A stretch of DNA of 64,000 bases from Pseudomonadota bacterium. Lineage in GTDB: Bacteria > Pseudomonadota > Gammaproteobacteria > Xanthomonadales > Xanthomonadaceae. The notes beneath the pieces were generated by a model, which was given only the letters and a program-made list of their open reading frames with translations, was not told where the DNA came from and made no database searches. The stretch spans positions 35,044 to 99,043 of the forward strand of contig JAFEBW010000050.1 in the NCBI GenBank assembly GCA_018242445.1, written 5' to 3'. The translations under genes and the position numbers were made by a program. The stretch's first letter is position 1. Each line of letters begins with the position of its first letter. Shown one piece after another: positions 2,304 through 26,675 of this stretch.

Positions 2304-3344
2304 TCAGGACGCTTCAGCGAGCGAACGGGTCGTGGCGACGAATTCGTCGAGCTTGCGTCGCGCCGCGCCGCTGGCCAGCGCCTGCCGCGCCAGCGCGATG
2401 CCGTGGCCGATGTCGGCGGCCACGTCGGCCGCATACAGCGCGGCACCCGCATTCAGGGCGACGATCTCGCGCGGCAGCCCCGGGGTGTCGGCGAGCGCGG
2501 CGAGCAACAGCGCCTTCGACTCGTTCGCATCGGCCACGCGCAGGTTGCGGCTGGCGGCCATGGCGATGCCGAAGTCCTCCGGGTGCACCTCGTACTCGCG
2601 CACCACGCCATCGCGCAATTCGGCGACCAGCGTGGCCGCGCCCAGCGAGATCTCGTCCATGCCGTCGCGCCCCCACACCACCAGCGCATGCCGCGCGCCC
2701 AGGCGCTGCAGCACGCGGGCCTGGATGCCGACCAGATCGGGATGGAACACGCCCATCAGGATGTTCGGCGCACCCGCCGGGTTGGCGAGCGGGCCGAGGA
2801 TGTTGAACAGCGTGCGCACGCCCAGCTCGCGGCGCACCGCGGCGACATGTTTCATCGCCGGATGGTGGTTGGGCGCGAACATGAAGGCCATCCCGGTACG
2901 CGCGAGGCACTGCGCGACCTGTGCCGGTTGCAGGTCGATGCGCGCGCCGAGGGCTTCCAGCACGTCCGCGCTGCCGGACTTCGACGACACCCCGCGATTG
3001 CCATGCTTGGCGACCTTCGCGCCGGCGGAGGCGACCACGAACATGCTGGCGGTGGAAATATTGAAGGTGTTGGAACCATCGCCGCCGGTGCCGACGATGT
3101 CCACGAAGGGCGTGCCGTCGTCAGGCACATCGACTTTGGTCGCGAACTCGCGCAGCACACTCGCCGCGCCGGCGATCTCGCCGATGGTCTCCTTCTTCAC
3201 CCGCAGCCCGACGAGGATCGCCGCGACCAGCGTGGGCGAAACCTCCCCGCGCATGATCTGGCGCATCAGATCCACCATCTCGTCGTGGAAGATCTCGCGG
3301 TGCTCGATGGTGCGCTGGAGGGCTTCTTGCGGGGTGATGGGCAT
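2304..3344 (-). CDS. trpD: anthranilate phosphoribosyltransferase
   Basis: Full-length TrpD with the motifs [17 protein letters not shown] and [20 protein letters not shown]. Confidence 0.95.
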
Positions 3345-3350
3345 GGGGCC

Positions 3351-3470
3351 GGGAATCGGGAATGGGGAATGGGGAATCGGAAAGACAGGCAGTGGGAATC
3401 GGCGGGATCCGGCGGTGGGAGTACTCGCTTCGGCTTCTACGATTCCCGATTCCCGATTCCCGATTCCCGG
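3351..3470. repeat. inverted arrays of tandem heptamers, (GGGAATC/G)x4 facing (GATTCCC)x4 with a roughly 60-nt loop, at the trpG/trpD junction
   Basis: Read directly. GGGAATC GGGAATG GGGAATG GGGAATC lies at 3351-3378 and GATTCCC x4 at 3441-3468. An extra GGGAATC lies in the loop at 3394-3400. Confidence 0.9.
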
Positions 3471-4045
3471 CCTTCAAGAAAATTCCCCAACAGCGCATGC
3501 CCGTGCTGGGTCAGGATCGACTCGGGATGGAACTGCACGCCCTCGATGCGCAGCTCGCGGTGGCGCAGGCCCATGATGGCCTCGATCTCGCCGTCGCCAT
3601 CCTGCGTCCACGCGGTGACCTCGAGGCAATCGGGCAGCGACTCGCGCTCGACCACCAGCGAGTGATAGCGCGTGGCCTCGAAGGGCGCTGGCAGGCCGGC
3701 GAACACGCCCTTGCCATCGTGGTGCACCGGCGAGGTCTTGCCGTGCATGATGTTCCCGGCACGCACCACCCTGCCGCCGAAGGCCTGCCCCAGCGACTGG
3801 TGGCCGAGGCACACGCCGAGGATCGGGATGCGCCCACCGAGTTGCGTGAGCACATCCAGCGACACCCCGGCATCGTCGGGTGTGCCCGGCCCGGGCGAGA
3901 TCACGATGTGCGATGGCGCGAGCGCCTCGATGCCGGCCACGTCCAGCGCATCGTTGCGCACCACCCGCACCTCCTGCCCCAGCTCGCCGAAGTACTGCAC
4001 GAGGTTGTAGGTGAAGGAGTCGTAGTTGTCGATCATCAGCAGCAT
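3437..4045 (-). CDS. trpG: anthranilate synthase component II (glutamine amidotransferase)
   Basis: [19 protein letters not shown]...GVCLGHQ...HGK...QFHPES is the class-I GATase triad region. The last 10 codons ([10 protein letters not shown]) are encoded by the heptamer array. Confidence 0.95.
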
Positions 4046-4048
4046 AAA

Positions 4049-4327: not shown

Positions 4328-4537
4328 ATGACCGCAAGCGACGGAGACATCCTCACGCTCGATGAGGTGGCCGCCTATTTGAAGGCCGGCAAGCGCACGG
4401 TGTACCGGTTCGCGCAAAACGGCGAACTCCCCGCCTTCAAGCTCGGCGGCACCTGGCGGTTCCGTCGCTCCGAGCTCGAGCGCTGGATCGACGCCAACAG
4501 CAACCAGCACAAATCGACAGGCAAGGGACGCCGCTGA
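4328..4537 (+). CDS. small helix-turn-helix DNA-binding protein (excisionase/MerR-like HTH)
   Basis: [46 protein letters not shown] is the typical excisionase-family HTH. The stop overlaps the helicase ATG (TGATG). Confidence 0.8.
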
Positions 4538-7500
4538 TGGAACTCCTCGACAACATCAGCCACCTGTTCGGCGACGATCTCAAGCAGGCGCTCACGTCCG
4601 GGGCCAAGCTCAAGGTCGCCGCCTCCTGCTTCTCGATGTACGCCTACGAGGCGTTGAAAGCCGAGCTGGAGCAGATCGACGAACTGCAGTTCATCTTCAC
4701 CGCACCCACGTTCGTTGCCGACGAAGTCACCGACCAGGTGAAACGCGAACGGCGCGAATTCCATATCCCCAAGCTGGATCGCGAGCGCAGCCTCTACGGC
4801 AGCGAGTTCGAGATACAACTGCGCAACAAACTCACCCAGCGCGCCATCGCCCGCGAGTGCGCCGACTGGCTGCGGCGCAAGGCGAAGTTCCGCAGCAACC
4901 GCAGCAAGGCCCCCATGCAGCAGTTTGCCGGCGTCCAGGACGCTGCAACGGCAACGGCATACATGCCACTGCACGGCTTCACCGCGGTTGATCTTGGCTA
5001 CCAGCAAGGCAACGCCGTCTCCAACTTCGTCAACAAGATCGGCGAGCCCACCTACGCCACGCAGTACCTGAACCTGTTCGAGCAGATCTGGAACGACGCG
5101 GAGAAGCTTGAAGACGTCACGGCGCAAATCTGCCAGCACATCGCTTCCGTGTACCAGGAGAACGCACCGGAGAGCGTCTACTTCCTGATGCTCTACAACA
5201 TCTTCAACGAGTTCTTGGGCGACCTCGACGAAGACGTGCTGCCCAACGACCGCACGGGCTACCAGGACACGCTGGTCTGGAACAAGCTCTTCAACTACCA
5301 GCGTGATGCCGCCACCGGCATCATCAACAAGCTGGAGACCTACAGCGGCTGCATCCTCGCCGACAGCGTGGGCCTGGGAAAAACCTTCACGGCGCTGGCC
5401 GTCATCAAGTATTACGAGCTGCGCAACAAGTCGGTGCTTGTGCTCTGCCCCAAGAAGCTGGCGGACAACTGGCTCAACTACAACCGTAACCTGAAGACCA
5501 ACCTGTTCGCCAAGGATCGTTTCAGCTACGACGTGCTTTGCCACACCGATCTGAGCCGCACCAGCGGCGAATCCTTCGGCACCCCACTCAACCGCATCAA
5601 CTGGGGCAACTACGACCTGGTGGTGATCGACGAGTCGCACAACTTCCGAAACAACGATGCCGTGAAGGAGCGCGAGACCCGCTACCAGAAGTTGATGCGC
5701 AAGGTGATTCGCGAGGGCGTCAAGACCAAGGTGCTGATGCTCTCGGCTACGCCGGTCAACAACCGCTTCAACGACCTGCGTAACCAGCTTGCATTGGCCT
5801 ACGAAGGCGACTCGGAGAACCTCAACAAGAAGCTTCGCACCAGCAAGTCGGTCGAAGAGGTGTTCCGCAACGCGCAGCGGGCTTTCAACACCTGGTCGCA
5901 GCTGCCACCGGAGCAGCGCACGCCGCGCGCCATCCTCGACGCGCTGGACTTCGATTTCTTCGAGCTCTTGGACAGCGTCACCATCGCGCGCTCGCGCAAG
6001 CACATCCAGACGTTCTACGACACCCGCGACATCGGCCCTTTCCCGGAGCGCCGCAAGCCACTGTCGTTCCACTGCCCGCTGACCACGCGGGTGGATGTCA
6101 TGAGCTTCAACGACATTTTCGAGCAGCTCGCCAAGCTCAACCTCGCGATCTACGCGCCGCTCAGCTACATCCTTCCCAGCCGCATCAAGAAGTACGAGGA
6201 CATGTACGACACCCAGGTATCGGGTGGCGGCGGCGCGTTGCGCCAGATAGACCGCGAACAAAGCCTGAAGAAGCTGCTCACCGTCAACCTGCTCAAACGC
6301 CTGGAAAGCTCGGTCGCCGCCTTCCGGCTGACCTTGAAGATGTTGCAAGGCAACCACCAGCACACACTCGGCAAGGTCGAAGCATTCGGAACAAGCGGCG
6401 GCAAAGGCAGCATCACCGACCACACGGCGGCACTCGACAGCCTGGACGCGGAAGACGACGACTGGCTGGACGCCGACGGCAGCGACTTCAACGTAGGCGG
6501 CAAGATCAAGATCGACCTGGCCGACATGGATTTGCCGCGCTGGCAGTTCGACCTTGAGCGCGACCGCGATGTGATCGCCACGCTCTTCGCGGAGATGGAG
6601 AAGATCACGCCAGCGGATGACACCAAGCTCCAGCATCTGAAAGCACTTGTGCAGGGAAAGATCGCCCAGCCGATCAACCCCGGCAACAAGAAGGTGTTGA
6701 TCTTCACCGCCTTCGCCGACACCGCCGACTACCTCTACGCCAACCTGGCACCCGAGCTATGGGCCAACCATGGCCTGCACAGTGCCGAGGTGACTGGCAG
6801 CACGCGACCCAAGTCCACCCTTGCCACGAAGTACGACTTCCAGGAACTGCTGACGTTGTTCTCGCCACGGGCCAAGGAAAAAGCCGTGGTATTGCCGCAA
6901 GAGCCGGCAGAAATCGACCTGCTCATCGGCACGGACTGCATCTCCGAAGGCCAGAACCTGCAGGACTGCGACTACCTGGTCAACTACGACATCCACTGGA
7001 ACCCGGTGCGCATCATCCAGCGCTTCGGCCGCATCGACCGCATCGGCTCGCCAAACGCCAGCATCCAATTGGTGAACTACTGGCCCGACATCTCGCTGGA
7101 CGAATACATCAACCTCAAGGAACGCGTCGAAAGCCGCATGACCATCGTCGACGTCACCGCCACCGGCGACGACAACGTGCTCTCGGCCCAGGCCAACGAC
7201 GTCGCCTATCGCAAGGAACAACTGCGGCGCCTGCAGGAAGAAGTGATCGAACTCGAAGACCTCAAGGCCGGCGTGTCGATCACCGACCTTGGCCTCAACG
7301 ACTTCCGCATGGATTTGCTGAACTACGTGAAGGCACATGGCGAGCTGAAGAGTGCCCCGAACGGCCTGCATGCCGTGGTACCTGCCAACACCCAGCTTGG
7401 CTTGCCGCCCGGCGTGCTCTTCACCCTGCGCAATCGCAATGCGGGTATCAACCCGGAAGCCAACCAACCCCACCACAACCGCCTGCACCCGTACTACCTG

Positions 7501-7830
7501 ATCTATATCGGGCGCGACGGTAACGTCGTCCACGACCAGACCGAAGTGAAGCGTTTGCTCGACCTGGCTCGCACTGCCTGCAAGGGGAAGAGCGAGCCTT
7601 GCCTCCCGCTGTGCGAGCAGTTCAACCGCGAGACGTCAGACGGCCGCAACATGCAGGCCTACTCGGATCTGCTGGGCAAGGCCATCCGCTCGATGATCGA
7701 CGTCAAGGAAGAGCGCGACATCGACAGCCTGTTCTCGGGCGGCAAGACCACGGCGCTGACCCAGACCATCGCCGGGCTGGACGACTTCGAGCTGATTGCC
7801 TTCCTCGTAATAGTGAGTGGTGAAAAGTGA
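4537..7830 (+). CDS. SNF2-family helicase with an N-terminal extension of about 270 aa (PLD-like architecture suspected, no HxK motif seen)
   Basis: Helicase motifs are ADSVGLGKT (I), [10 protein letters not shown] (II), MLSATPVNN (III) and [39 protein letters not shown] (V/VI). The stop TGA at 7828-7830 lies inside the heptamer arm. Confidence 0.9.
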
Positions 7831-8241
7831 AGAGTGAGATGGTGAGCGACATCAGGGAGCGGACGTTTGGTTTTGCCACGCGGGTGGTGAGGCTGTGCCA
7901 AAAGCTGGATGCCGCACCGGGAGTATCGCGGACGGTGGCAAACCAGTTGTTGCGTTCGGGCGCCTCCATCGGAGCCAACGTGGAAGAGGCGCATGGCAGT
8001 CAGAGCAAGGCCGATTTCACCGCAAAAATGTACATCGCCTGCAAGGAGTCCCGCGAAACGCACTACTGGCTGCGCCTGCTGGTCGCCACAGACATCGTCC
8101 CAGAAGCCAAGCTCGCCCCGTTACTCGACGAGTCCAATCAGCTCATCGCCATCCTGACCGCGATCGTGAAGACCGCCCGAAATGGTCGCGCCCCTCATGC
8201 CTGACCATTTCACTTCTCACCCTTCACTCTTCACTTTTCCC
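7809..8241 (+). mobile_element. cassette made of a purine-rich heptamer arm, a four-helix-bundle gene and a pyrimidine-rich heptamer arm, inserted at the helicase/DUF4391 junction
   Basis: The left arm is AATAGTGAGTGGTGAAAAGTGAAGAGTGAGATGGTGAG (7809-7846). The right arm is CCATTTCACTTCTCACCCTTCACTCTTCACTTTTCCC (8205-8241) and is its approximate reverse complement. The mobile nature is inferred. Confidence 0.5.
7839..8204 (+). CDS. four-helix-bundle protein (23S rRNA intervening-sequence protein family)
   Basis: ANQLLRSGASIGANVEEAHGSQSKADFTAKMYIACKESRETHYWLRLL matches the family core (xQLxRSxxSIxANIxEGxxxxSxxDFxxxLxIAxxSxxEtxyWL). The ATG at 7839 is preferred to the GTG at 7827. Confidence 0.85.
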   Translation: MVSDIRERTFGFATRVVRLCQKLDAAPGVSRTVANQLLRSGASIGANVEEAHGSQSKADFTAKMYIACKESRETHYWLRLLVATDIVPEAKLAPLLDESNQLIAILTAIVKTARNGRAPHA

Positions 8242-8880
8242 AAAAGCTCCGCTTTTGGGAAAGTTCTGCCCAAGGCCAAGCTTTACGAGCACGGCAGTGT
8301 CGGAACGCGCCTCAAAGGCCTCTTCACCGAGCAGGTCGAACAGATCGTCTGGCAGTACAAGCTGGCGCCGGAGACGATCAACCTGCCAGCATCGCCCGGC
8401 GTGCCGGAGATCCAGGTCTTCAGCGTGCGACTCCGGGCACCCGAGTTGCATCATGACGTGCTTCGCGGCATGGACAGCGCTATCGCGTTCCCGATCCTCT
8501 TCGAACTGAACTTCGAGGATCGCATCCAGGTCGTCGCTGCCTACAAGCGCCCCAGCGAGGCCGACGCTTCCCGCTGGGTACGCTCCGACTACTTCGCCTC
8601 GGAGTGGCTGCCCACAAGCAGCCCACGCAAGGCCATGCCCACCGCATTGAGCTTGGGCAATCTGTACCAGCAGGTGTTGTCGGCGCTGATCGCCCTACCT
8701 GCCCGGCCAAGCGAGTCTCTGCCCGCATTGGTCGAACGCGCCAGCCAGGTGCAGGCGCTCCGCCATGAGCTGCACAAGGTCGTCTCAAGGCTTGAGAAGG
8801 AAAAGCAGTTCAATCGCAGGGTAGAGATCAATGCGTCGGTGCGAGAGTTGAAGCACAACCTGAAATTGCTGGAGGGATAG
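8197..8880 (+). CDS. DUF4391 domain protein
   Basis: The N-terminus is [19 protein letters not shown]. The length of about 228 aa and the position next to an SNF2 helicase and a methyltransferase are typical of DUF4391. The start is uncertain (8182 or 8197), and both candidates lie inside the cassette. Confidence 0.75.
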
Positions 8881-8882
8881 CC

Positions 8883-10292
8883 ATGCATGAAATCATCTGC
8901 CCGCACTGCCAGAAGGCGTTCAAGGTCGACGAGGCCAGCTACGTGAGCATCCTGAAGCAGGTTCGCGACAAGGAGTTCGACAAGCAGCTGCATGAGCGGT
9001 TGGAACTCGCCGAGCGAGACAAGCTCAATGCGGTTGAGCTTGCCCAAGCCAAGCTTGCTGGTGAGCTGCAGAAGGAGGCTTTGGCCAAGGATGCCGAGAT
9101 CAAGGAACTGAAGGCCAGGCTGGACGCCGGTGACGCCTCGCGCAAGCTGGCCGTCACCGAGGCGTTGAGCCCGGTCGAGAAGGAGCGCAACCAGCTCGCC
9201 AACGAACTGGCGCAAGCCAAGCGTGACCTGGAGTCTGCGGCCAAGCTGGCCGAAGCAACGCGAGCAAACGCCGTTCAGACAGCCGCCGCCGCGAAAGACG
9301 CCGAAATTCAGGCGCTGCAGGCCAAGCTCGACGCTAGTGAAGTTGCCCAACAACTTGCGGTCAACAGGGCGGTCAGCGTCGTCGAGAATGAGCGCAACGC
9401 GCTGCAGAGCGGCCTGCAGCGTGCCGAGCTTGAAAAGGACCTGGCCGAGAAGTCCCTGAAGGAAAAGTACGAAACCCAGCTCAAGGATCGTGAGGAGACC
9501 ATTGAGCGCCTCAAGGACATGAAAGCCAAGCTGTCGACCAAGATGATCGGCGAGAGCCTTGAGCAGCACTGCGAGACCGAGTTCAACCGCATCCGCGCCA
9601 CCGCGTTCCCACACGCCTACTTCGAGAAGGACAACGACGCGCGCAGCGGCAGCAAGGGCGACTTCATCTTCCGCGACCAAGCCGAAGACGGCACCGAGAT
9701 CGTCTCCATCATGTTCGAGATGAAGAACGAGAACGACGAGACCGCCAGCAAGAAGAAGAACGAAGACTTCCTGAAAGAGCTCGACAAGGATCGCGCGGAA
9801 AAAGGCTGCGAGTACGCCGTGCTGGTTTCCCTGCTGGAGCCGGAGAGCGAGCTTTACAACACCGGCATCGTCGACGTGTTCCACCGCTACCCGAAGATGT
9901 ACGTCGTGCGGCCGCAGTTCTTCATCCCCATCATCACGCTGCTGCGCAATGCGGCCACCAAAGCCTTGGCCTACAGGCAGGAACTCGCGCTGGTTCGGGC
10001 ACAGAATCTCGACATCACGCGATTCGAGAAGCAGCTGGACGAGTTCAAGGGGGCGTTCGGCAGGAACTGGCGGCTTGCCTCCGACGGCTTCGAGGAGGCC
10101 GTCAAGCGGATCGACGAAGCCATCAAGGATCTGGAGAGGACCAAGGACGCCCTCCACAAATCTGCGAACAATCTGCGGCTTGCGAACGACAAGGCTGAAG
10201 ATCTGACGATCAAGAAATTGACCCGGGGCAACCCGACGATGGCGGCGAAGTTCGCCGAACTGAAAGACCACGATGCTTCCGGCGAAGCATGA
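8883..10292 (+). CDS. DUF2130 protein (N-terminal CxxC, long coiled coil, C-terminal PD-(D/E)xK-like motif)
   Basis: It has the [18 protein letters not shown]-terminus, about 200 aa of Ala/Glu/Lys/Gln-rich heptad-like sequence, and then GDFIF...x15...FEMK. Confidence 0.75.
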
Positions 10293-10309
10293 ACCCAAGG
10301 AAGCACACG

Positions 10310-12250
10310 ATGGACAAGTTGAAGATGCACTCGCCTGACCTCAGCCAGGACAACCTCGCGCGGCTACGCGAGATGTTTCCGGGCTGCGTGACGGAAGCAA
10401 GAGTGAAGGGTGAAGAGGGAAAAGTGAAATATGCGGTGGACTTCGACCTGCTGCGGCAGGAGCTGTCCGGGTTGCTGGTGGAGGGGCCGCAGGAGCGCTA
10501 CCAGCTCGACTGGCCGGGCAAGCGCGAAGCGCTGCTGACGGCCAATGCGCCGATTGCCAAGACCTTGCGCCCGGTGCGCGACGAAAGCGTGGACTTCGAC
10601 ACCACCAAGAACCTGTTCATCGAAGGCGACAACCTGGAGGCGCTCAAGCTGCTGCAGGAGACGTATCTGGGCAAGGTGAAGCTGATCTATATCGACCCGC
10701 CGTATAACACCGGCCGAGACTTCGTTTACGACGATGACTTTGCCGAGGATGCAGAGTCGTTCCTTGTGAAGTCGCTCCAGCAAAGCACGACGGGCGAAAA
10801 GCTTGTGGCAAACCCGGAGTCGAATGGCAGGTTTCACTCCGACTGGCTTTCCATGATGTATGCACGAACGCGTCTAGCAAAAAGTCTCCTGACCGACGAT
10901 GGAATTTTTCTCGCTTCGATTGACGATGGCGAGGTATCTAACCTACGGAAGGTCTGCGATGAGATTTTCGGTGAAGAGCAATTTGCTGCTCAGATCATCT
11001 GGAAAAAGCGCAATACACCGCCAAACGACAAGATCATCGGTGCCCAGCACGACTACATCTTGCTTTATGTAAAGAATGGCCTCTCTGGAATTAACCTCCG
11101 GCCAAGATCGCAGGATCAGATAGACCGTTACAAGAATCCAGACAATCACCCCAAAGGGCCATGGGTCGCCGGCGACCTCACCGGCAACGTGAAGGGCGGA
11201 CGTTACTCAGCCGCGCTGCATTACCCAATTAAAAACCCGAATACAGGGGAGCAATTCTATCCAGCCAATAACGGGAACTGGCGATTTAATAAAGAGAAAA
11301 TTGAGCAACTTATCTCCGAAGACGCAATTTATTTCGGAAAGGATGGCAAACAAGCCCCGAAACTTAAGCGCTTTCTCTCCGACGTGAAGGATGGCACTAC
11401 ATGGACATCCCTCTGGGATTTCGCACCATTCAACACATCCGGATCGAACGAGATGGGCGAAATTTTCGGCAACTCAACTCTCTTTGAGAACCCTAAGCCC
11501 GTTGGCCTACTCGAACATGTGATTGAGCTTGGTGCATCACCGGGTTCAATCGTAGTCGACTTCTTTGCTGGCACATCTACAACTGCACACGCCGTAATGA
11601 GGAAAAACGCTGAGGACAATGGCAATCGCCGCTTCATCATGGTGCAGTTGCCGGAGGCTTGCGCCAAGGATTCGGAGGCATTCAAGGCGGGCTACGCGAC
11701 AATCGCCGAGGTAAGTAAGGACCGCATCCGCCGCGCCGGTAAGAAGATCAGCGATGGCGGCTCACAGGTTGACATCGGCTTCCGCGTCCTCAAGATCGAC
11801 ACCTCCAACATGGCCGATGTGTTCTACACCCCCGACGCCGTTAGCCAAGGTGACCTGCTCAATGCAGTGGACAACATCAAGCCCGACCGCAGCGCCGAAG
11901 ACCTGCTGTTCCAGGTGATGCTGGACTGGGGCGTGGATCTTTCGCTCCCTGTCGGGCGCGAAAGAATAGTGAAGAGTGAAAATGGAATGGTGAAGTTCGA
12001 GCCGATAGCGCCAGAAGATTTCACTTCTCACTTTTCACCATTCACTCTTCTAACGGTTGACGGCAACGCCCTAATCGCCTGTTTCGACAACGCCGGCAAC
12101 ATCGACGATGCGTTAGCCAAAGAGCTGGCCAAGCGCAAGCCCCTGCGCGCGGTGTTCCGCGATGCCGGCTTCAAGGACAGCACGGTGAAGATCAACATCG
12201 AACAGATCTTCAAGCTGCTCTCGCCGGGCACCGAAGTGAAGTGCCTGTGA
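10310..12250 (+). CDS. site-specific DNA methyltransferase, Type III Mod-like (beta-class N6A/N4C order)
   Basis: MDKLKMHSPDLSQDNLARL is a Mod-type N-terminus. Motif IV IYIDPPYNTG precedes motif I VVDFFAGTSTTAHAV. The SD AAGGAAG lies 6-7 nt upstream of the ATG at 10310. Confidence 0.9.
   Translation: MDKLKMHSPDLSQDNLARLREMFPGCVTEARVKGEEGKVKYAVDFDLLRQELSGLLVEGPQERYQLDWPGKREALLTANAPIAKTLRPVRDESVDFDTTKNLFIEGDNLEALKLLQETYLGKVKLIYIDPPYNTGRDFVYDDDFAEDAESFLVKSLQQSTTGEKLVANPESNGRFHSDWLSMMYARTRLAKSLLTDDGIFLASIDDGEVSNLRKVCDEIFGEEQFAAQIIWKKRNTPPNDKIIGAQHDYILLYVKNGLSGINLRPRSQDQIDRYKNPDNHPKGPWVAGDLTGNVKGGRYSAALHYPIKNPNTGEQFYPANNGNWRFNKEKIEQLISEDAIYFGKDGKQAPKLKRFLSDVKDGTTWTSLWDFAPFNTSGSNEMGEIFGNSTLFENPKPVGLLEHVIELGASPGSIVVDFFAGTSTTAHAVMRKNAEDNGNRRFIMVQLPEACAKDSEAFKAGYATIAEVSKDRIRRAGKKISDGGSQVDIGFRVLKIDTSNMADVFYTPDAVSQGDLLNAVDNIKPDRSAEDLLFQVMLDWGVDLSLPVGRERIVKSENGMVKFEPIAPEDFTSHFSPFTLLTVDGNALIACFDNAGNIDDALAKELAKRKPLRAVFRDAGFKDSTVKINIEQIFKLLSPGTEVKCL
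11965..12052 (+). repeat. cargo-less heptamer-array hairpin inserted in frame in mod
   Basis: AATAGTGAAGAGTGAAAATGGAATGGTGAAG ... TTTCACTTCTCACTTTTCACCATTCACTCTTC. The arms are reverse-complementary and are translated as IVKSENGMVKFEPIAPEDFTSHFSPFTL. Confidence 0.8.
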
Positions 12251-12259
12251 GGGAGTGCC

Positions 12260-13924
12260 ATGGAGAAGACTGAGCTGACGCAGCTGCTGGAAAGCCTGAT
12301 CGCCACCTGGGAGAACGAGGTGGTGGAGTTCAAGCAGGCCGGCAGCGACTACAGCACCGACGACATCGGCAAGTATTTTTCCGCGCTGGCCAACGAGGCC
12401 AACTTGCGCGGGGCCGATGCCGGCTGGCTGGTGTTCGGCGTGAACAACAAGACGCGCCGCATGGTGGGCACGGACTACCGCCCGCAGGCTGCGCGGCTGC
12501 ACGCGCTCAAGATGCAGATCACCGAGAACGCCGAGCCGCGCATCAGCTTTCGCGATATCCACGAGTTGAGCCATGCCGATGGCCGCGTGCTGCTGTTCGA
12601 GATACCGGCAGCCCCACTCGGCATACCCATTGCCTGGAAGGGCCACTACTACGCCCGCGCTGGCGAAAGCCTGATCTCGCTGTCGCTGGACAAGCTGGAT
12701 GGCATCCGCCGCCAGACTCTGGCGCAGGACTGGACGGCGCAAGTCGTGCCTGGTGCGACCCTGGCCGACCTGGATGAAACCGCGCTGCGCAGGGCGCGTG
12801 AATCGTTTGCCAGCAAGTACGCGAACCGGGTTGCGCTCAGCGAAGTGCTGGGCTGGCCCATCAACACCTTCCTCGACCGGGCGCGGTTGACGCAGGACGG
12901 GCAGCTCACCCGCGCAACGCAGTTGCTGCTGGGCAAGCGCGAGTCGGCGTATCGCCTGTCGCCCCACCCCGCGCAACTGACATGGAGCCTGGTGGGCCAG
13001 GAGCGCGCCTACGAGCATTTCGGCCCGCCCTTCCTGCTGAGCACCACTCGCCTGTACCAGCGCATCCGCAACATCCAGTTGCGCATCCTGCCGCAGGACG
13101 AACTGGTGCCCGTGGAAGTGGCCAAGTACGACCAGAAGATCGTGCTGGAAGCCTTGCACAACTGCATCGCTCACCAGGACTACACGCGCCACGGCCGCGT
13201 GGTGGTGACGGAGCAACCCGACCGGCTGGTGTTCGAGAACGAGGGCGGCTTTTACGAGGGCAGCCCCGACGACTACATCACCGGCACCAAGCTTCCCCGG
13301 CGCTACCGCAACCCATTCCTCGCCCAGGCGATGGCCGAGCTGAACATGATCGACACCATGGGCTACGGCATCCACGACATGTACGTGCGCCAGGCGCGGC
13401 GCTACTTCCCGATGCCGGACTACGACCTTGGCGAAGCCGGGGCCGTGAAGATGACGATCTACGGCGGTGTGGTCGATCCGGCTTATAGCCGGTTGCTGAT
13501 CCAGCGCACCGATCTGCCGCTGGCGGACGTGCTGGCGCTGGATCGCGTGCAGAAGAAGCTGTCGATTCCAGACGAGGCCGCTGCGCGCCTACGCAAGGGC
13601 AGACTGATCGAGGGCCGCAAGCCGAACTACTTCGTGTCTGCCGAGGTGGCGACGGCCACGGACAGCAAGGTCGACTACATCCGCACGCGCCCTCAGGACG
13701 ACGAGTTCTACGCCAAGCTGCTCGTCGACTACTTGGAAAAGTTTGGCGAGGCCACGCGCACCGAGATCAACAAGCTGCTGCTGGACAAGCTCAGCGACGC
13801 GCTGGACGAGCAGCAAAAGTACAACAAGGTCAGCAATCTCCTCACCAATCTGCGCCGCCGTGGAGTTATCCGCAACGCTGGCGTCGACAGCGCGCCGCGC
13901 TGGGTACTTGCAGAGACGAATTAG
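12260..13924 (+). CDS. AlbA_2 (Schlafen-like DNA-binding) plus ATPase-like/wHTH protein, often annotated as ATP-binding protein or putative transcriptional regulator
   Basis: The N-terminus ENEVVEFKQAG...IGKYFSALANEANLRGADAGWLVFGV is typical of AlbA_2. The central NCIAHQDY...GGFYEG resembles the HATPase_c_4 region. The SD GGGAG lies upstream. Confidence 0.75.
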   Translation: MEKTELTQLLESLIATWENEVVEFKQAGSDYSTDDIGKYFSALANEANLRGADAGWLVFGVNNKTRRMVGTDYRPQAARLHALKMQITENAEPRISFRDIHELSHADGRVLLFEIPAAPLGIPIAWKGHYYARAGESLISLSLDKLDGIRRQTLAQDWTAQVVPGATLADLDETALRRARESFASKYANRVALSEVLGWPINTFLDRARLTQDGQLTRATQLLLGKRESAYRLSPHPAQLTWSLVGQERAYEHFGPPFLLSTTRLYQRIRNIQLRILPQDELVPVEVAKYDQKIVLEALHNCIAHQDYTRHGRVVVTEQPDRLVFENEGGFYEGSPDDYITGTKLPRRYRNPFLAQAMAELNMIDTMGYGIHDMYVRQARRYFPMPDYDLGEAGAVKMTIYGGVVDPAYSRLLIQRTDLPLADVLALDRVQKKLSIPDEAAARLRKGRLIEGRKPNYFVSAEVATATDSKVDYIRTRPQDDEFYAKLLVDYLEKFGEATRTEINKLLLDKLSDALDEQQKYNKVSNLLTNLRRRGVIRNAGVDSAPRWVLAETN

Positions 13925-14031: not shown

Positions 14032-17000
14032 ATAAAGCTCAAGTTCAAGATCCAGCGTTACCAGACCGACGCCGTACAGTCCGTGGTGGATTGCTTCGAG
14101 GGCCAGCCACCAGCCAACGCCCGGGCCGTCAGCTACCGCATCGACCCCGGCAAGCTGGCCAAGGGACAGACCATCGGCAGCACGCTGAGTGCCGGCGACG
14201 GCTTCCGCAATGCCGACCTGCTGCTGACCGAGCAGGCCTTGCTGGCCAACGTGCAGAAGATGCAGCGCCACCAGAACCTGCCGATCTCCACCGCGCTGGT
14301 GAAGACCAAGATGTCGCCGGTCAATCTCGACATCGAGATGGAAACCGGCACCGGGAAGACTTATTGCTACATCAAGACCATGTTTGAGCTGAACCAGCGC
14401 TACGGCTGGAGCAAGTTCATCGTGGTGGTGCCCTCTATCGCCATCCGCGAGGGCGTGGCCAAGTCGCTGAAGATCACCGCCGACCACTTCCTGGAAACCT
14501 ACGGCAAGAAGGCCCGGTGCTTCATCTACGACTCCAAGCAGTTGCACCAGTTGGAGAGCTTCGCCTCCGACGCCGGCATCAACGTGATGGTCATCAACGT
14601 GCAGGCGTTCAACGCCGCCGGCAAGGACAACCGGCGCATCTACGAAGAGCTGGACGACTTCCAGTCGCGCAAGCCCATCGACGTCATCAGCGCCAACCGC
14701 CCCATCCTGATTCTGGACGAGCCGCAGAAGATGGAAGGCGACAAGACGCTCAAGTCGCTGGAGGCGTTCAAGGCCTTGATGGTGTTGCGCTACTCGGCCA
14801 CGCACAAGACCCGGCACAACCAGATTCACCGCCTGGACGCGCTCGACGCCTACAACCAGAAGCTGGTGAAGAAGATCGCCGTGCGCGGCATCACCATGAA
14901 GGGGCTGGCAGGCACCAACGCCTATCTCTACCTGCAGTCCATCGAGATTTCGACCAGAAAGCCGCCGGAAGCACGGCTGGAGTTCGAGCAGAAGCTGGCT
15001 GGCGGCAAGATCAAGCGCATCGTGCGCAAGCTCGGCAAGGGCGACAACCTGTTCACCCTCTCCAACGAATTGGACGAGTACCGCACCGGCTTCACGGTGG
15101 CGGACATCAATGCCAACACCGACACCTTGAGCTTCACCAACGGCGTGCAGCTCACCGTGGGCGATGCCACGGGCAACGTGAACGAATCAGCGCTGCGACG
15201 CATCCAGATTCGCGAAGCGATCAAGGCGCACTTCGACAAGGAAGAAGCCCTGTTCGCACAAGGCGTGAAGGTGCTCAGCTTGTTCTTCATCGACGAGGTG
15301 GCGAAGTACCGCGACTACTCAGCCGCCGACGAGAAAGGCGACTACGCCCGCATGTTCGAGGAGGAGTACGACGAAATAGTGAAGAGCGAATTGGGAAGAT
15401 TGAATGAGGAAAGTTCAATTCTCAATCTTCACCATTCACTCTTATATGCCGACTACCTGAAAGGCATCGCGGCGGAGAAAACCCACAGCGGCTACTTCTC
15501 CATCGACAAGAAGAGCAAGCGCCTGACCGACCCCACGGTGGCGAAACGCGGGGAGAACGCCGGGCTGTCGGACGATACCGATGCCTACGACCTGATCCTC
15601 AAGGACAAGGAGCGCCTGCTGTCGCTCGACGAACCAGTGCGCTTCATCTTTTCGCACTCGGCACTGCGCGAAGGCTGGGACAACCCCAACGTGTTCGTCA
15701 TTTGCGCGCTCAAGCACAGCGACAACACCGTCTCGCGGCGTCAGGAAGTGGGGCGCGGCTTGCGCCTTTGCGTGAACCAGCAAGGCGACCGCATGGACAA
15801 CCCGGTCACCGTGCATGACATCAACGTGCTGACCGTGGTGGCCAGCGAAAGCTACAAGGACTTCGTGGCCGGGTTGCAGGACGACATCAGCAAGTCGCTT
15901 GCCGAACGCCCACGCAAGGCCAACGAGGATTACTTCAAAGGCAAAGTGCTCAAGACCGAGCAAGGCGACGTGGACGTCACGCCAGCGATGGCGAAGCAGA
16001 TCTACAAATACCTGCTCAAAAACGACTACACCGACGATAACGACGGTATCGCCGATACCTATCACCAGGCACGCAAGGATGGTGCGCTGGCGGAGCTTCC
16101 TGCCGACTTGAAGCCCTACGCCGATCAGGTGGTCTTCCTCATCGACAGCGTCTTCAGCCAGGCGCTGCTCCCGGACATCGCCGACGGACGCAAGCCGAAG
16201 ACGAACCCGCTCAACGCCAACTTCGACAAGCAGGAATTCAAGGCGTTGTGGAACCGCATCAATCGCAAGGCGGCCTACAGCGTGCACTTCGACAGCGACG
16301 AACTGGTCGCGAAGGCCGCGGCCAAGCTCAACGACAAGGATGAAGGCTTGCGGGTCACCCCGCTGCAGTACGTCATCCAGGCCGGCACGCAGACAAAACA
16401 GGCCACCTACGACGACATCGCCGCCGGCAAGGGCTTCCGGATCACCGAGAGCGAAGTGGAGAACCACCGCGCCTCGATCCACTCGCTGGTGCGCTACGAC
16501 CTGATCGGCAAGCTGGCCGAGGGCACCCAGCTCACCCGACGCACCATCGCCGACATCCTGAAGGGCATGAACGTGGCAGTGTTCGCCCAGTTCAAGACCA
16601 ACCCGGAAAGCTTCATCGCCGAAGCCACTCGGCTCATCAACGAGCAGAAGGCCACCGTGATCGTCGAGCACCTGGCCTATGACCCGGTGGAAGAAACCTA
16701 CGACCTGGACATCTTCACCGCCAGCCAAAGCCGACAGGACTTCACGAACGCCGGCGGAAAGCTTCAGCACCACATCTACGACTACGTGGTCACCGACTCC
16801 AAGGTGGAGCGCCAGTTCGTAACCAATCTGGACACCAGCACCGACGTGGTGGTCTACGCCAAGCTACCCAGGGGCTTCCTCATCCCGACACCGGTAGGCG
16901 ACTACAACCCGGACTGGGCCATCAGCTTCAAGGAAGGCAAGGTCAAGCACATCTACTTCGTCGCCGAGACGAAAGGCTCGATGTCCAGCATGGAGCTACG

Positions 17001-26553: not shown

Positions 26554-26675
26554 GGAGTGGGAAAGCGAAAAGCCTCGCGCTCCCGGATGGATTCTCACTC
26601 CCGGTATCCCTTGGTCAGATGCCTGCACGCACGCGCTTGTACCATTCCCCATTCCCCATTCCCCATTCCCGCCCC
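26532..26675. repeat. inverted arrays of tandem heptamers (GGGAATA AGGAATA GGAAATA GGGAGTG ... CCATTCC x4) at the tsaD/folB junction
   Basis: Read directly. The left arm is 26532-26566 and the right arm 26642-26675. An inner GGGAGTG/CACTCCC pair lies at 26553-26559 and 26596-26602. Confidence 0.9.

Follow-up and report, generated by a model that had tools for sequence, protein, structure and literature searches.

A probable intervening-sequence-type cassette at the helicase/DUF4391 junction of a type III restriction-modification operon

Gene order and coding signals at the junction

The window analysed here is a 64,000-nucleotide (nt) stretch of contig JAFEBW010000050.1 (assembly GCA_018242445.1, positions 35,044 to 99,043 of the forward strand) from a bacterium of the Xanthomonadaceae. 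Our subject is a gene for a 121-amino acid (aa) four-helix-bundle protein, hereafter the cargo, which lies between two inverted arrays of heptamers, the arms, at the junction of an SNF2-type helicase gene and a DUF4391 gene; arms and cargo together are called the cassette. The operon encodes, in order, an HTH protein, the SNF2 helicase, the cargo, the DUF4391 protein, a DUF2130 protein, a type III Mod, an SLFN/AlbA_2-HATPase protein, and a type III Res. In PADLOC, Mod and Res matched MTase_III (E = 4.5e-222) and REase_III (E = 0), respectively, which identifies a type III restriction-modification (R-M) system, and the SNF2 helicase, DUF4391, DUF2130, and SLFN-like genes are extras beyond Mod and Res. 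The guanine-plus-cytosine (GC) content of 59.9%, compared to 68% on either side, indicates that the operon is a horizontally acquired island. It adjoins trpG-trpD, as does the island at the related locus L001, from a metagenome-assembled genome (MAG). The features at the junction are as follows.

4537-7830, plus strand: SNF2-type helicase gene; the last six codons (IVSGEK) and the stop come from the 5' arm
7809-7846, plus strand: 5' arm, AATA followed by the purine-rich heptamers GTGAGTG GTGAAAA GTGAAGA GTGAGAT GGTGAG
7839-8204, plus strand: cargo gene, 121-aa four-helix-bundle protein; the alternative start GTG 7827 would give 125 aa
8197-8880, plus strand: DUF4391 gene; the start codon lies within the end of the cargo open reading frame (ORF)
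8205-8241, plus strand: 3' arm, the pyrimidine-rich complement CCATTTCAC TTCTCAC CCTTCAC TCTTCAC TTTTCCC
8236-8262, plus strand: perfect 12-bp hairpin TTTCCCAAAAGC-tcc-GCTTTTGGGAAA, stems 8236-8247 and 8251-8262, z = -5.0

The four full heptamers of the 5' arm occupy 7813-7840 and run into the cargo ATG at 7839, followed by GGTGAG. A repeat finder applied to 7700-8400 joined the two arms by a perfect 16-nt inverted repeat (7822-7837 with 8224-8239), and by further inverted repeats of 20 nt at 90% and 23 nt at 83% identity in registers one heptamer apart. When up to three mismatches were allowed, the arm 16-mer occurred 12 times in the 64-kb window, as compared to 0.16 expected.

The cargo scored 71.2 bits on PF05635 (cut-off 33.8), with residues 5-107 aligned to profile positions 5-105 of 106, and 88.3 bits on TIGR02436 (cut-off 24). 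By sequence homology, its residues 5-115 matched the solved four-helix-bundle structure PDB 2RLD (E = 1.2e-20). An exact look-up of the cargo protein gave no record, and the homology search returned the identical protein as P0001. The four-helix bundle of PF05635/TIGR02436 is characteristically a homopentamer. Proteins of PF05635/TIGR02436 share the motif (G)xxRxxxSxxxNxxE (PMC3936711); in the corresponding cargo segment, LLRSGASIGANVEEA, the residues R39, S43, N47, and E50 of the motif are present and Q replaces the leading G.

The coding signals of all three genes fall on the arms. The helicase stop TGA (7828-7830) lies within the 5' arm, as do two candidate cargo starts, ATG 7839 and GTG 7827, the latter in frame with the cargo and overlapping the helicase stop (GTGA). 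The cargo stop (8202-8204) is overlapped by the DUF4391 start at ATG 8197 (ATGCCTGA), and 11 N-terminal DUF4391 residues are encoded by the 3' arm. A second in-frame DUF4391 start exists at ATG 8182; gene calls in relatives take the equivalent of 8197. The Pfam DUF4391 domain begins at "FTFPK" (around F17 of the 8182 ORF), and the residues ahead of it are arm-encoded.

A preliminary description of this DNA, made from its letters, had proposed inverted heptamer arms (7813-7846 and 8205-8241) around a 121-aa four-helix-bundle ORF, a helicase stop inside the 5' arm, and DUF4391 residues specified by the 3' arm, all of which were borne out by the repeat and profile searches above. It had taken ATG 7839 as the cargo start and ATG 8197 as the only available start of DUF4391; the former position stands with GTG 7827 as a further possibility, and the overlap at the latter is real, although ATG 8182 is in frame too.

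The small hairpin at 8236-8262, which had been given as 11 bp and is in fact 12 bp, falls in the conserved DUF4391 motif (F/Y)PKxxAFG(K/R), here FPKSSAFGK. Among the junctions examined, the strong 12-bp form was seen only at DUF4391 loci that bear the cassette, and empty sites have a weak stem. At L102, L231, and L236, the hairpin carries one compensatory double change, CCCAAAAGC/GCTTTTGGG versus CCCGAAAGC/GCTTTCGGG, which corresponds to a K-to-E substitution matched by a synonymous change in an F codon. The hairpin may be a separate translational control element.

Empty and filled junctions

In a DUF4391-domain scan that took one genome per species and yielded 80 loci, about 75 of the helicase-DUF4391 junctions had neither a four-helix-bundle gene nor heptamer arrays, and the two genes were joined directly. 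At these empty junctions the helicase TGA overlaps the DUF4391 ATG (ATGA), the helicase ends in ...FLVIQEAG* or ...FLVVLEAA*, and DUF4391 begins M...ALIAYPKQAAFGR. At the window junction, ...FLV is followed by the arm-encoded IVSGEK*, the cargo, and the arm-encoded DUF4391 start, and about 44 nt of the junction are replaced. Since about 75 of the 80 orthologous loci are empty and show the ATGA overlap, the cassette is regarded as an insertion; it recodes the helicase tail (IVSGEK*) and the DUF4391 N-terminus.

The same armed layout was found at L001/L058, L011-L020, L025, L102, and L231-L236, with cargo proteins 76-85% identical. On a neighbour-joining tree of 800 helicase residues, cassette-bearing loci are scattered among empty ones, and the sister of the window is the empty locus L023, whose helicase is 94% identical over 800 aa.

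The junction has other occupants in other lineages. At L064 (Chlorobiaceae) it holds a four-helix-bundle gene of 38% identity with ATGAAGG / CATCCTT arms, at L046 (Sterolibacterium) a gene for a GxxExxY protein (TIGR04256, E = 5e-42) with inverted arms of CGCAGA type, and at L094 a cargo-less hairpin. Rubritalea profundi (L101, Verrucomicrobiota) has a 74%-identical cargo with GTGAATG arms in an AIPR / type I R-M island that lacks DUF4391.

When metagenomes were scanned with the cargo, 80 further loci were obtained. Every relative at or above 63% identity had GTGAARR / TCACTYT arms, in the following contexts: between genes for HsdM and YhcG, CarB and a formyltransferase, an alcohol dehydrogenase and UxaE, DUF1156 and AAA_21, and a 3-keto-disaccharide hydrolase and a sulfatase (upstream and downstream, respectively). 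Distant relatives (43-50% identity) had other 7-nt units, such as TTTACCA, ATTTGAR, CAAATNG, and GCGAACA, and were found between APH and enolase, between two ArsA genes, between UvrD and EVE, and upstream of HypD. A Nostoc plasmid copy has the arms (AATTCAA)x4 / (TTTTGAA)x4. Arm sequence tracks cargo subfamily.

Same-strand ORFs of at least 150 aa abut the cassettes upstream at 24 and downstream at 27 of 33 loci, and an opposite-strand ORF lies upstream at two of the 33. The period-7 signal in the flanks exceeded the 95th percentile of controls at 32 of 55 distinct loci, compared to 2-9 of 55 for periods 5, 6, 8, 9, and 10. No match to an rRNA or other Rfam family was found in the window, and none of 20 related loci lies in rRNA by Rfam; one unrelated small RNA was matched among them.

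As a marker, the GTGAARR x3 pattern by itself proved not to be specific, since it retrieved more than 120 viral-contig loci, none of which had a four-helix-bundle ORF. Within the IMG/VR viral and proviral contigs (48-66% GC), GTGAARR inverted hairpins without such a gene were seen at L112 1620-1760, L137 675-730, and L177 145-365, and many other viral matches are plain long tandem arrays.

The finding of different occupants at one junction, and of like units in unrelated contexts, supports mobility of the cassette on an evolutionary time scale, and the range of neighbours indicates that it is not defence-specific. The preliminary description had proposed an IVS-type (intervening-sequence-type) unit, inserted seamlessly, whose sequence the host genes use, and a mobile or RNA-processed module in a defence operon. 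The orthologous loci upheld insertion and the use of the element by both host genes, and the replacement of about 44 nt contradicts "seamless". Mobility stands on the long time scale and fails on the recent one, where the cassette is as diverged as its flanks; likewise, the host is a type III R-M-like operon, but carB, eno, hypD, and uvrD are neighbours of the same kind of unit elsewhere.

Gene content varies among L001, L011, L012, L102, and the window (8883-13924) in two intervals, from DUF4391 to Mod and from Mod to Res, and includes DUF2130, Bro-N, an OLD-like ATPase-TOPRIM, an AAA+ gene with an S8 peptidase, Fic, and SLFN/AlbA_2. From this variation, the operon is judged to be a mosaic of exchangeable accessory modules.

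Coding logic, predicted RNA structure, and cargo-less copies

The heptamers contain RTGA, as GTGA in the window, ATGA at L064, and GAT|GA in Coxiella. With a unit of 7 nt (7 mod 3 = 1), the frame shifts by one from each heptamer to the next, and three of them place TGA, and GTG or ATG, in all three frames. In the 5' arm region of the window, stop triplets occur at 7808/7811/7814 (one frame), 7821, 7828, 7835, and 7843, and no frame stays open past the cargo start, whereas 8205-8262 contains no stop triplet in any frame. Among 27 distinct cassettes, 21 had stops in all three frames within the 45 nt ahead of the cargo ATG (2.1% of random windows), and in 20 the 42 nt past the cargo stop were free of stops in all frames (42% of random windows). 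An upstream ORF of any frame would thus end within the 5' arm beside the cargo start codon, and a downstream gene could start inside the cassette and read out through the stop-free 3' arm. This coding logic may have been selected, or it may be a by-product of the repeat unit.

The predicted fold of 7790-8280 (whole-segment z-score -2.5) has 34 arm pairs (17 AU, 13 GC, and 4 GU), formed by 7812-7852 with 8197-8235, and the start and stop of the cargo, the helicase stop, and the DUF4391 ATG would all be buried in this stem. A motif scan of 7400-8700 gave no promoter-like or terminator-like site, and a reading of the arms as an intrinsic terminator was rejected. The ratio of nonsynonymous to synonymous substitutions (dN/dS) was 0.06-0.15 for the cargo and 0.09-0.14 for the helicase, indicating that the cargo is under purifying selection. 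Given this selection, its position within an operon, and the lack of a promoter motif, the cargo must depend on read-through for its transcription and must be translated.

All GTGARRR arrays of the window lie inside the island, as three or four copies between 7.8 and 15.4 kb, and none occurs in the other 51 kb. Besides the cassette, these are as follows.

10398-10430, plus strand: E2, a solo heptamer-like patch at the Mod N-terminus; status uncertain
11963-12055, plus strand: E3, a cargo-less heptamer hairpin of 93 nt in frame in the type III Mod, z = -4.1
15371-15445, plus strand: E4, a cargo-less heptamer hairpin in frame in the type III Res, z = -3.8

For E3, 30 aa (RIVKSENGMVKFEPIAPEDFTSHFSPFTLL) stand in place of about 8 aa, and 62 of 73 Mod orthologs have the short form without it; L025 and L107/L108, which are cassette carriers too, have heptamer hairpins at the E3 site. 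E3 reads GGA where a regular array would give an in-frame TGA. For E4, 27 residues stand in place of QLYLNEVLDLDETPYI, and the element is missing from all 59 Res orthologs. E2 differs from the orthologs' native AAGGGTGAAGACGGCAACGTGAAG by an additional 6 nt and five changes; the substitutions run towards A-ending codons in a 67% GC genome and all make E2 more like the arm repeat. At this position, the native sequence of Mod is itself repeat-like (GGTGAAGA...GTGAAG), and E2 could be a gene conversion from the arm or the remnant of an element.

Paired hairpins of the kind seen at E3 and E4 were found at 4 of 27 cassette loci, representing three lineages (the window, L025, and L107/L108), versus 1 of 83 cassette-free loci. 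Because these loci are not independent, the association is only suggestive of an autonomous / non-autonomous relationship between cassettes and cargo-less hairpins. The sole cassette-free hairpin locus, L085 of a Desulfocapsa MAG, has ATGAAGG/CCTTCAT at 10811-10865, about 170 nt past DUF4391.

E3, E4, and the Rubritalea L101 copy start with (A)ATAGTGAA and end with CTCTT(C)TA, with TA at both ends; in the window, these end sequences lie at 11966-11968 and 12051-12053 for E3 and at 15376-15377 and 15440-15443 for E4. The terminal TA could be a target duplication, as in TA-inserting miniature inverted-repeat transposable elements (MITEs), or part of a terminal repeat.

Other heptamer arrays were noted in the window and in related loci. 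At 3346-3472, a 127-nt hairpin made up of inverted GGGAATC/GGGAATG heptamers (-82 kcal/mol, z = -7.6) is located between two minus-strand genes, trpD (2307-3344) and a trpG-like glutamine amidotransferase gene (3440-4048). The amidotransferase ORF ends within the arm, which supplies its last codons and its stop, and the same array type occupies the same place in L001 (1603-1630); GGGAATC hairpins form a second heptamer-hairpin family, richer in GC, that is native to the host genome. A solo (CCATTCC)x4 array (26643-26670) is located directly upstream of the folB start ATG 26676, and an upstream ATG at 26619 would read in frame through it. In the Sterolibacterium MAG (L046 14438-14500), (GCGAGCA)x9 lies inside the type III Mod and the ORF is broken after the array; this array is a candidate heptamer phase-variation switch, or else the gene is a pseudogene. 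An extra GTGAAGA array is present between DUF4391 and DUF2130, after a small or degraded ORF, at L003-L009 (around 2320-2370) and in L001 (7492-7526), and has 5 or 6 units depending on the metagenome variant, which is a natural unit-number polymorphism.

Competing explanations and known systems

We favour, with a probability of about 0.7, the explanation that 7809-8241 is an IVS-type cassette that was inserted long ago into the stop/start overlap of the helicase and DUF4391 genes, and that it belongs to a large class lodged between operon genes and in 23S rRNA. Such cassettes would lodge mostly co-directionally between the genes of varied operons. In the mRNA, the arm stem of about 34 bp would sequester the start and stop codons of the cargo together with the DUF4391 start, and a ribosome ending the helicase ORF within the arm would melt the stem and expose both downstream starts, so that translation would be coupled. 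Stems that are not translated would, by analogy with 23S IVSs, be RNase III substrates. RNA processing of the cassette stem is plausible by that analogy, and RNase III cleavage might conceivably split the polycistronic mRNA. The arms, with or without cargo, would be the transposed unit, and cargo-less copies such as E3 and E4 would persist only where the host ORF stays open.

Several observations weigh against parts of this explanation. In a sliding nucleotide profile over the helicase end, the cassette, and the DUF4391 start, identity was 72-84% with no peak at the cassette, and the cargo dS was about 1 or more, the cassette being as diverged from its relatives as the flanking genes. Recent mobility is ruled out by the missing identity peak, and these divergences indicate that the cassette is an old resident of this operon lineage. 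Recombination and loss may have contributed as much as new insertions to the patchy distribution, and the cassette could have spread among these operons by homologous recombination and loss instead of transposition. No transposase, clean target-site duplication, or recent copy was found for the cassette. Host sequence is replaced, not merely interrupted, at all three sites (cassette, E3, and E4); the cassette is therefore not a clean insertion, and no clean target duplication is readable at any of them. In Anabaena cylindrica plasmid pANACY.01 (L311 2815-3575), the four-helix-bundle gene lies antisense between cas1 and cas2, with GTAAAAA-type arrays on either side. As to RNA, G.U exceeded A.C arm mismatches by only 70 to 59, a difference that is not significant as a sign of sense-strand selection and for which the local alignments ran into the flanks. 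Pairing of a cassette's own arms was better than cross-locus pairing in only 4 of 18 cassettes (L231, L236, L249, and L064); this comparison of duplex energies is not discriminating as to co-evolution of the two arms because all GTGARRR arms of the subfamily are alike and pair mutually.

Alternatively, the four-helix-bundle protein might be a dedicated subunit or regulator of the helicase-DUF4391 type III R-M-like system, with the arms as expression signals and nothing mobile. The strong purifying selection on the cargo (dN/dS about 0.1), the retention of stop/start overlaps with both neighbours in at least five lineages, the resemblance of cargo divergence to that of the flanks, and the presence of family genes inside cas loci (PMC3936711) are consistent with such a role. 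A dedicated subunit would not be expected to be missing from about 75 of 80 orthologous operons, nor to occur in the same subfamily and with the same arms beside the housekeeping genes carB, eno, hypD, and uvrD. In addition, a GxxExxY gene and an unrelated four-helix-bundle gene take the same junction in other lineages, and no PADLOC model matches the cargo. We regard this explanation as unlikely.

A purely regulatory RNA hairpin, acting in processing, stability, or coupling, may instead have evolved in place and captured the four-helix-bundle gene later. The predicted 34-pair stem that sequesters three translation signals fits this idea, as does the occurrence of other intergenic heptamer hairpins in the host genome, such as the GGGAATC type at trpG-trpD (z = -7.6). 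It is rendered quite improbable by the fact that arms and cargo travel jointly across phyla and contexts and that arm sequence tracks cargo subfamily, and by the cargo-less copies inside ORFs, where a processing site would harm.

It is also conceivable, if very improbable, that the arrays are slipped-strand contingency repeats, in which gain or loss of 7 nt in the 3' arm phase-varies DUF4391 together with the genes coupled to it downstream. As 7 is not divisible by three, each such change would shift the frame, and the DUF4391 ORF runs through five units; another array of a related locus has 5 versus 6 units (L003-L009), the L046 Mod combines (GCGAGCA)x9 with a broken ORF, and heptamer copy number varies among Coxiella strains. 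The arm units of the cassette, however, differ from one another, which would lower slippage, and arm length and frame were constant in 10/10 contigs L001-L010 (P0002) and 10/10 contigs L011-L020 (P0010). Slippage also leaves the inverted symmetry, the cargo, and the copies in housekeeping operons unexplained.

Finally, a chance or compositional resemblance of purine-rich coding sequence, as the native GGTGAAGA...GTGAAG of Mod at E2 can yield for short matches, is already refuted by the 12 matches against 0.16 expected, the perfect 16-nt inverted repeat, the conservation of the arms in every relative, and the specificity of period 7.

The nature of 23S IVSs and the role of S23p proteins have been open for some 30 years. 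The locus and the comparative set suggest that a stem-plus-cargo cassette of general occurrence resides within transcription units, with IVSs as one of its niches, and the coding logic, in which TGA heptamers close all frames and the other arm is free of stops, would let it sit between or inside genes without polar damage. For annotation, four-helix-bundle genes in R-M, CRISPR, and other defence operons need not belong to those systems, and the arms can account for unusual segments at the ends or in the interior of host proteins. A broader proposal, which we consider tentative and on the whole doubtful, is that heptamer-armed four-helix-bundle genes are unrecognised and very widespread operon-invading mobile cassettes, with 23S IVSs and many of the cyanobacterial short tandemly repeated repetitive (STRR) arrays as special cases. 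An Avd-like protein would recognise its own arms and help to move them, possibly through an RNA or hairpin intermediate, and cargo-less derivatives would add new stretches of peptide to host proteins such as Mod and Res. Recognition by the protein of its own heptamer arms would fit the observation that arm sequence tracks cargo subfamily. No description of heptamer arms on non-rRNA copies, of junction insertions, or of in-frame cargo-less derivatives was found in the literature searched; as much of the older literature lay outside that search, this absence is weak evidence.

The cassette resembles integron cassettes in being a promoterless single-gene unit that is transcribed by its host and exchanged at a fixed position. 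Unlike in integron cassettes, inverted repeats flank the ORF in place of a single downstream attC, and insertion is in ordinary operons; the arms flanking the ORF and the lack of an integrase among the neighbours rule out the integron reading. The occurrence of the same arms in operons other than R-M rules out a reading of them as clustered head-to-head recognition sites of the type III enzyme.

Avd, which serves diversity-generating retroelements (DGRs) as an accessory protein, is in Pfam family PF05635 (PMC10053308). It is a small four-helix-bundle homologue of the cargo and, within a DGR, a binding partner of both nucleic acid and the reverse transcriptase. DGRs are not characterised by inverted heptamer arms, and in 7700-8400, the span searched for repeats, no template/variable repeat pair was noticed. 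A DGR was ruled out, since none of the eight ORFs tested near the cargo has a reverse transcriptase domain.

Rickettsia palindromic elements, like other MITE-like hairpins, are maintained in frame within ORFs, and Correia elements of Neisseria form mRNA hairpins that are cut by RNase III and are flanked by TA. E3 and E4 are similar to the former in being short palindromic insertions through which the host ORF stays open and gains a stretch of peptide, and E3, E4, and the L101 copy share TA at both ends with the latter. By the empty-site test that is used for MITEs, about 75 of 80 loci lack the cassette, 62 of 73 have the short form at E3, and 59 of 59 are without E4. Unlike in either class, the arms consist of tandem heptamers, a version with arms and a four-helix-bundle gene exists, and host sequence is replaced, not only interrupted. 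We know of no partner transposase for heptamer-armed elements.

The STRR heptanucleotide repeats of cyanobacteria were reportedly described by Mazel et al. in 1990 as dispersed, with neither a cargo gene nor an insertion model. The arms share with them the tandem 7-nt units, often in inverted arrays, and exactly such arrays flank four-helix-bundle genes on plasmids of Nostoc and Anabaena. Unlike the STRR hosts, the organism with the cassette is a GC-rich proteobacterium.

The closest likeness is to the 23S IVSs of Coxiella burnetii, Leptospira, and Brucella, in which an inverted-repeat stem of at least 20 bp encloses a PF05635 ORF that is promoterless and whose expression is tied to the host transcript. 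In Coxiella burnetii, the S23p ORF is enclosed by a 28-bp terminal-inverted-repeat stem and its ATG is immediately preceded by AGAAGA and three GACAGAT heptamers in tandem; heptamer number is strain-dependent, and RNase III cuts at the first repeat (PMC4990558). This arrangement agrees with the IVS-type architecture claimed in the preliminary description, including the purine-rich tract and tandem heptamers immediately upstream of the ORF start; the origin and function of 23S IVSs "remain unclear" (PMC4990558). Excision by RNase III has been shown for IVSs and is plausible for the cassette. The host transcript of the cassette is a protein-coding operon, and because location in helix 25 or 45 of 23S rRNA defines an IVS, the cassette is classed as working like an IVS rather than as one. 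It also differs from 23S IVSs in that both arms are translated into flanking host proteins. The Coxiella S23p ORF is reported to be decaying and probably untranslated (PMC4990558), whereas the cargo of the cassette is clearly under purifying selection.

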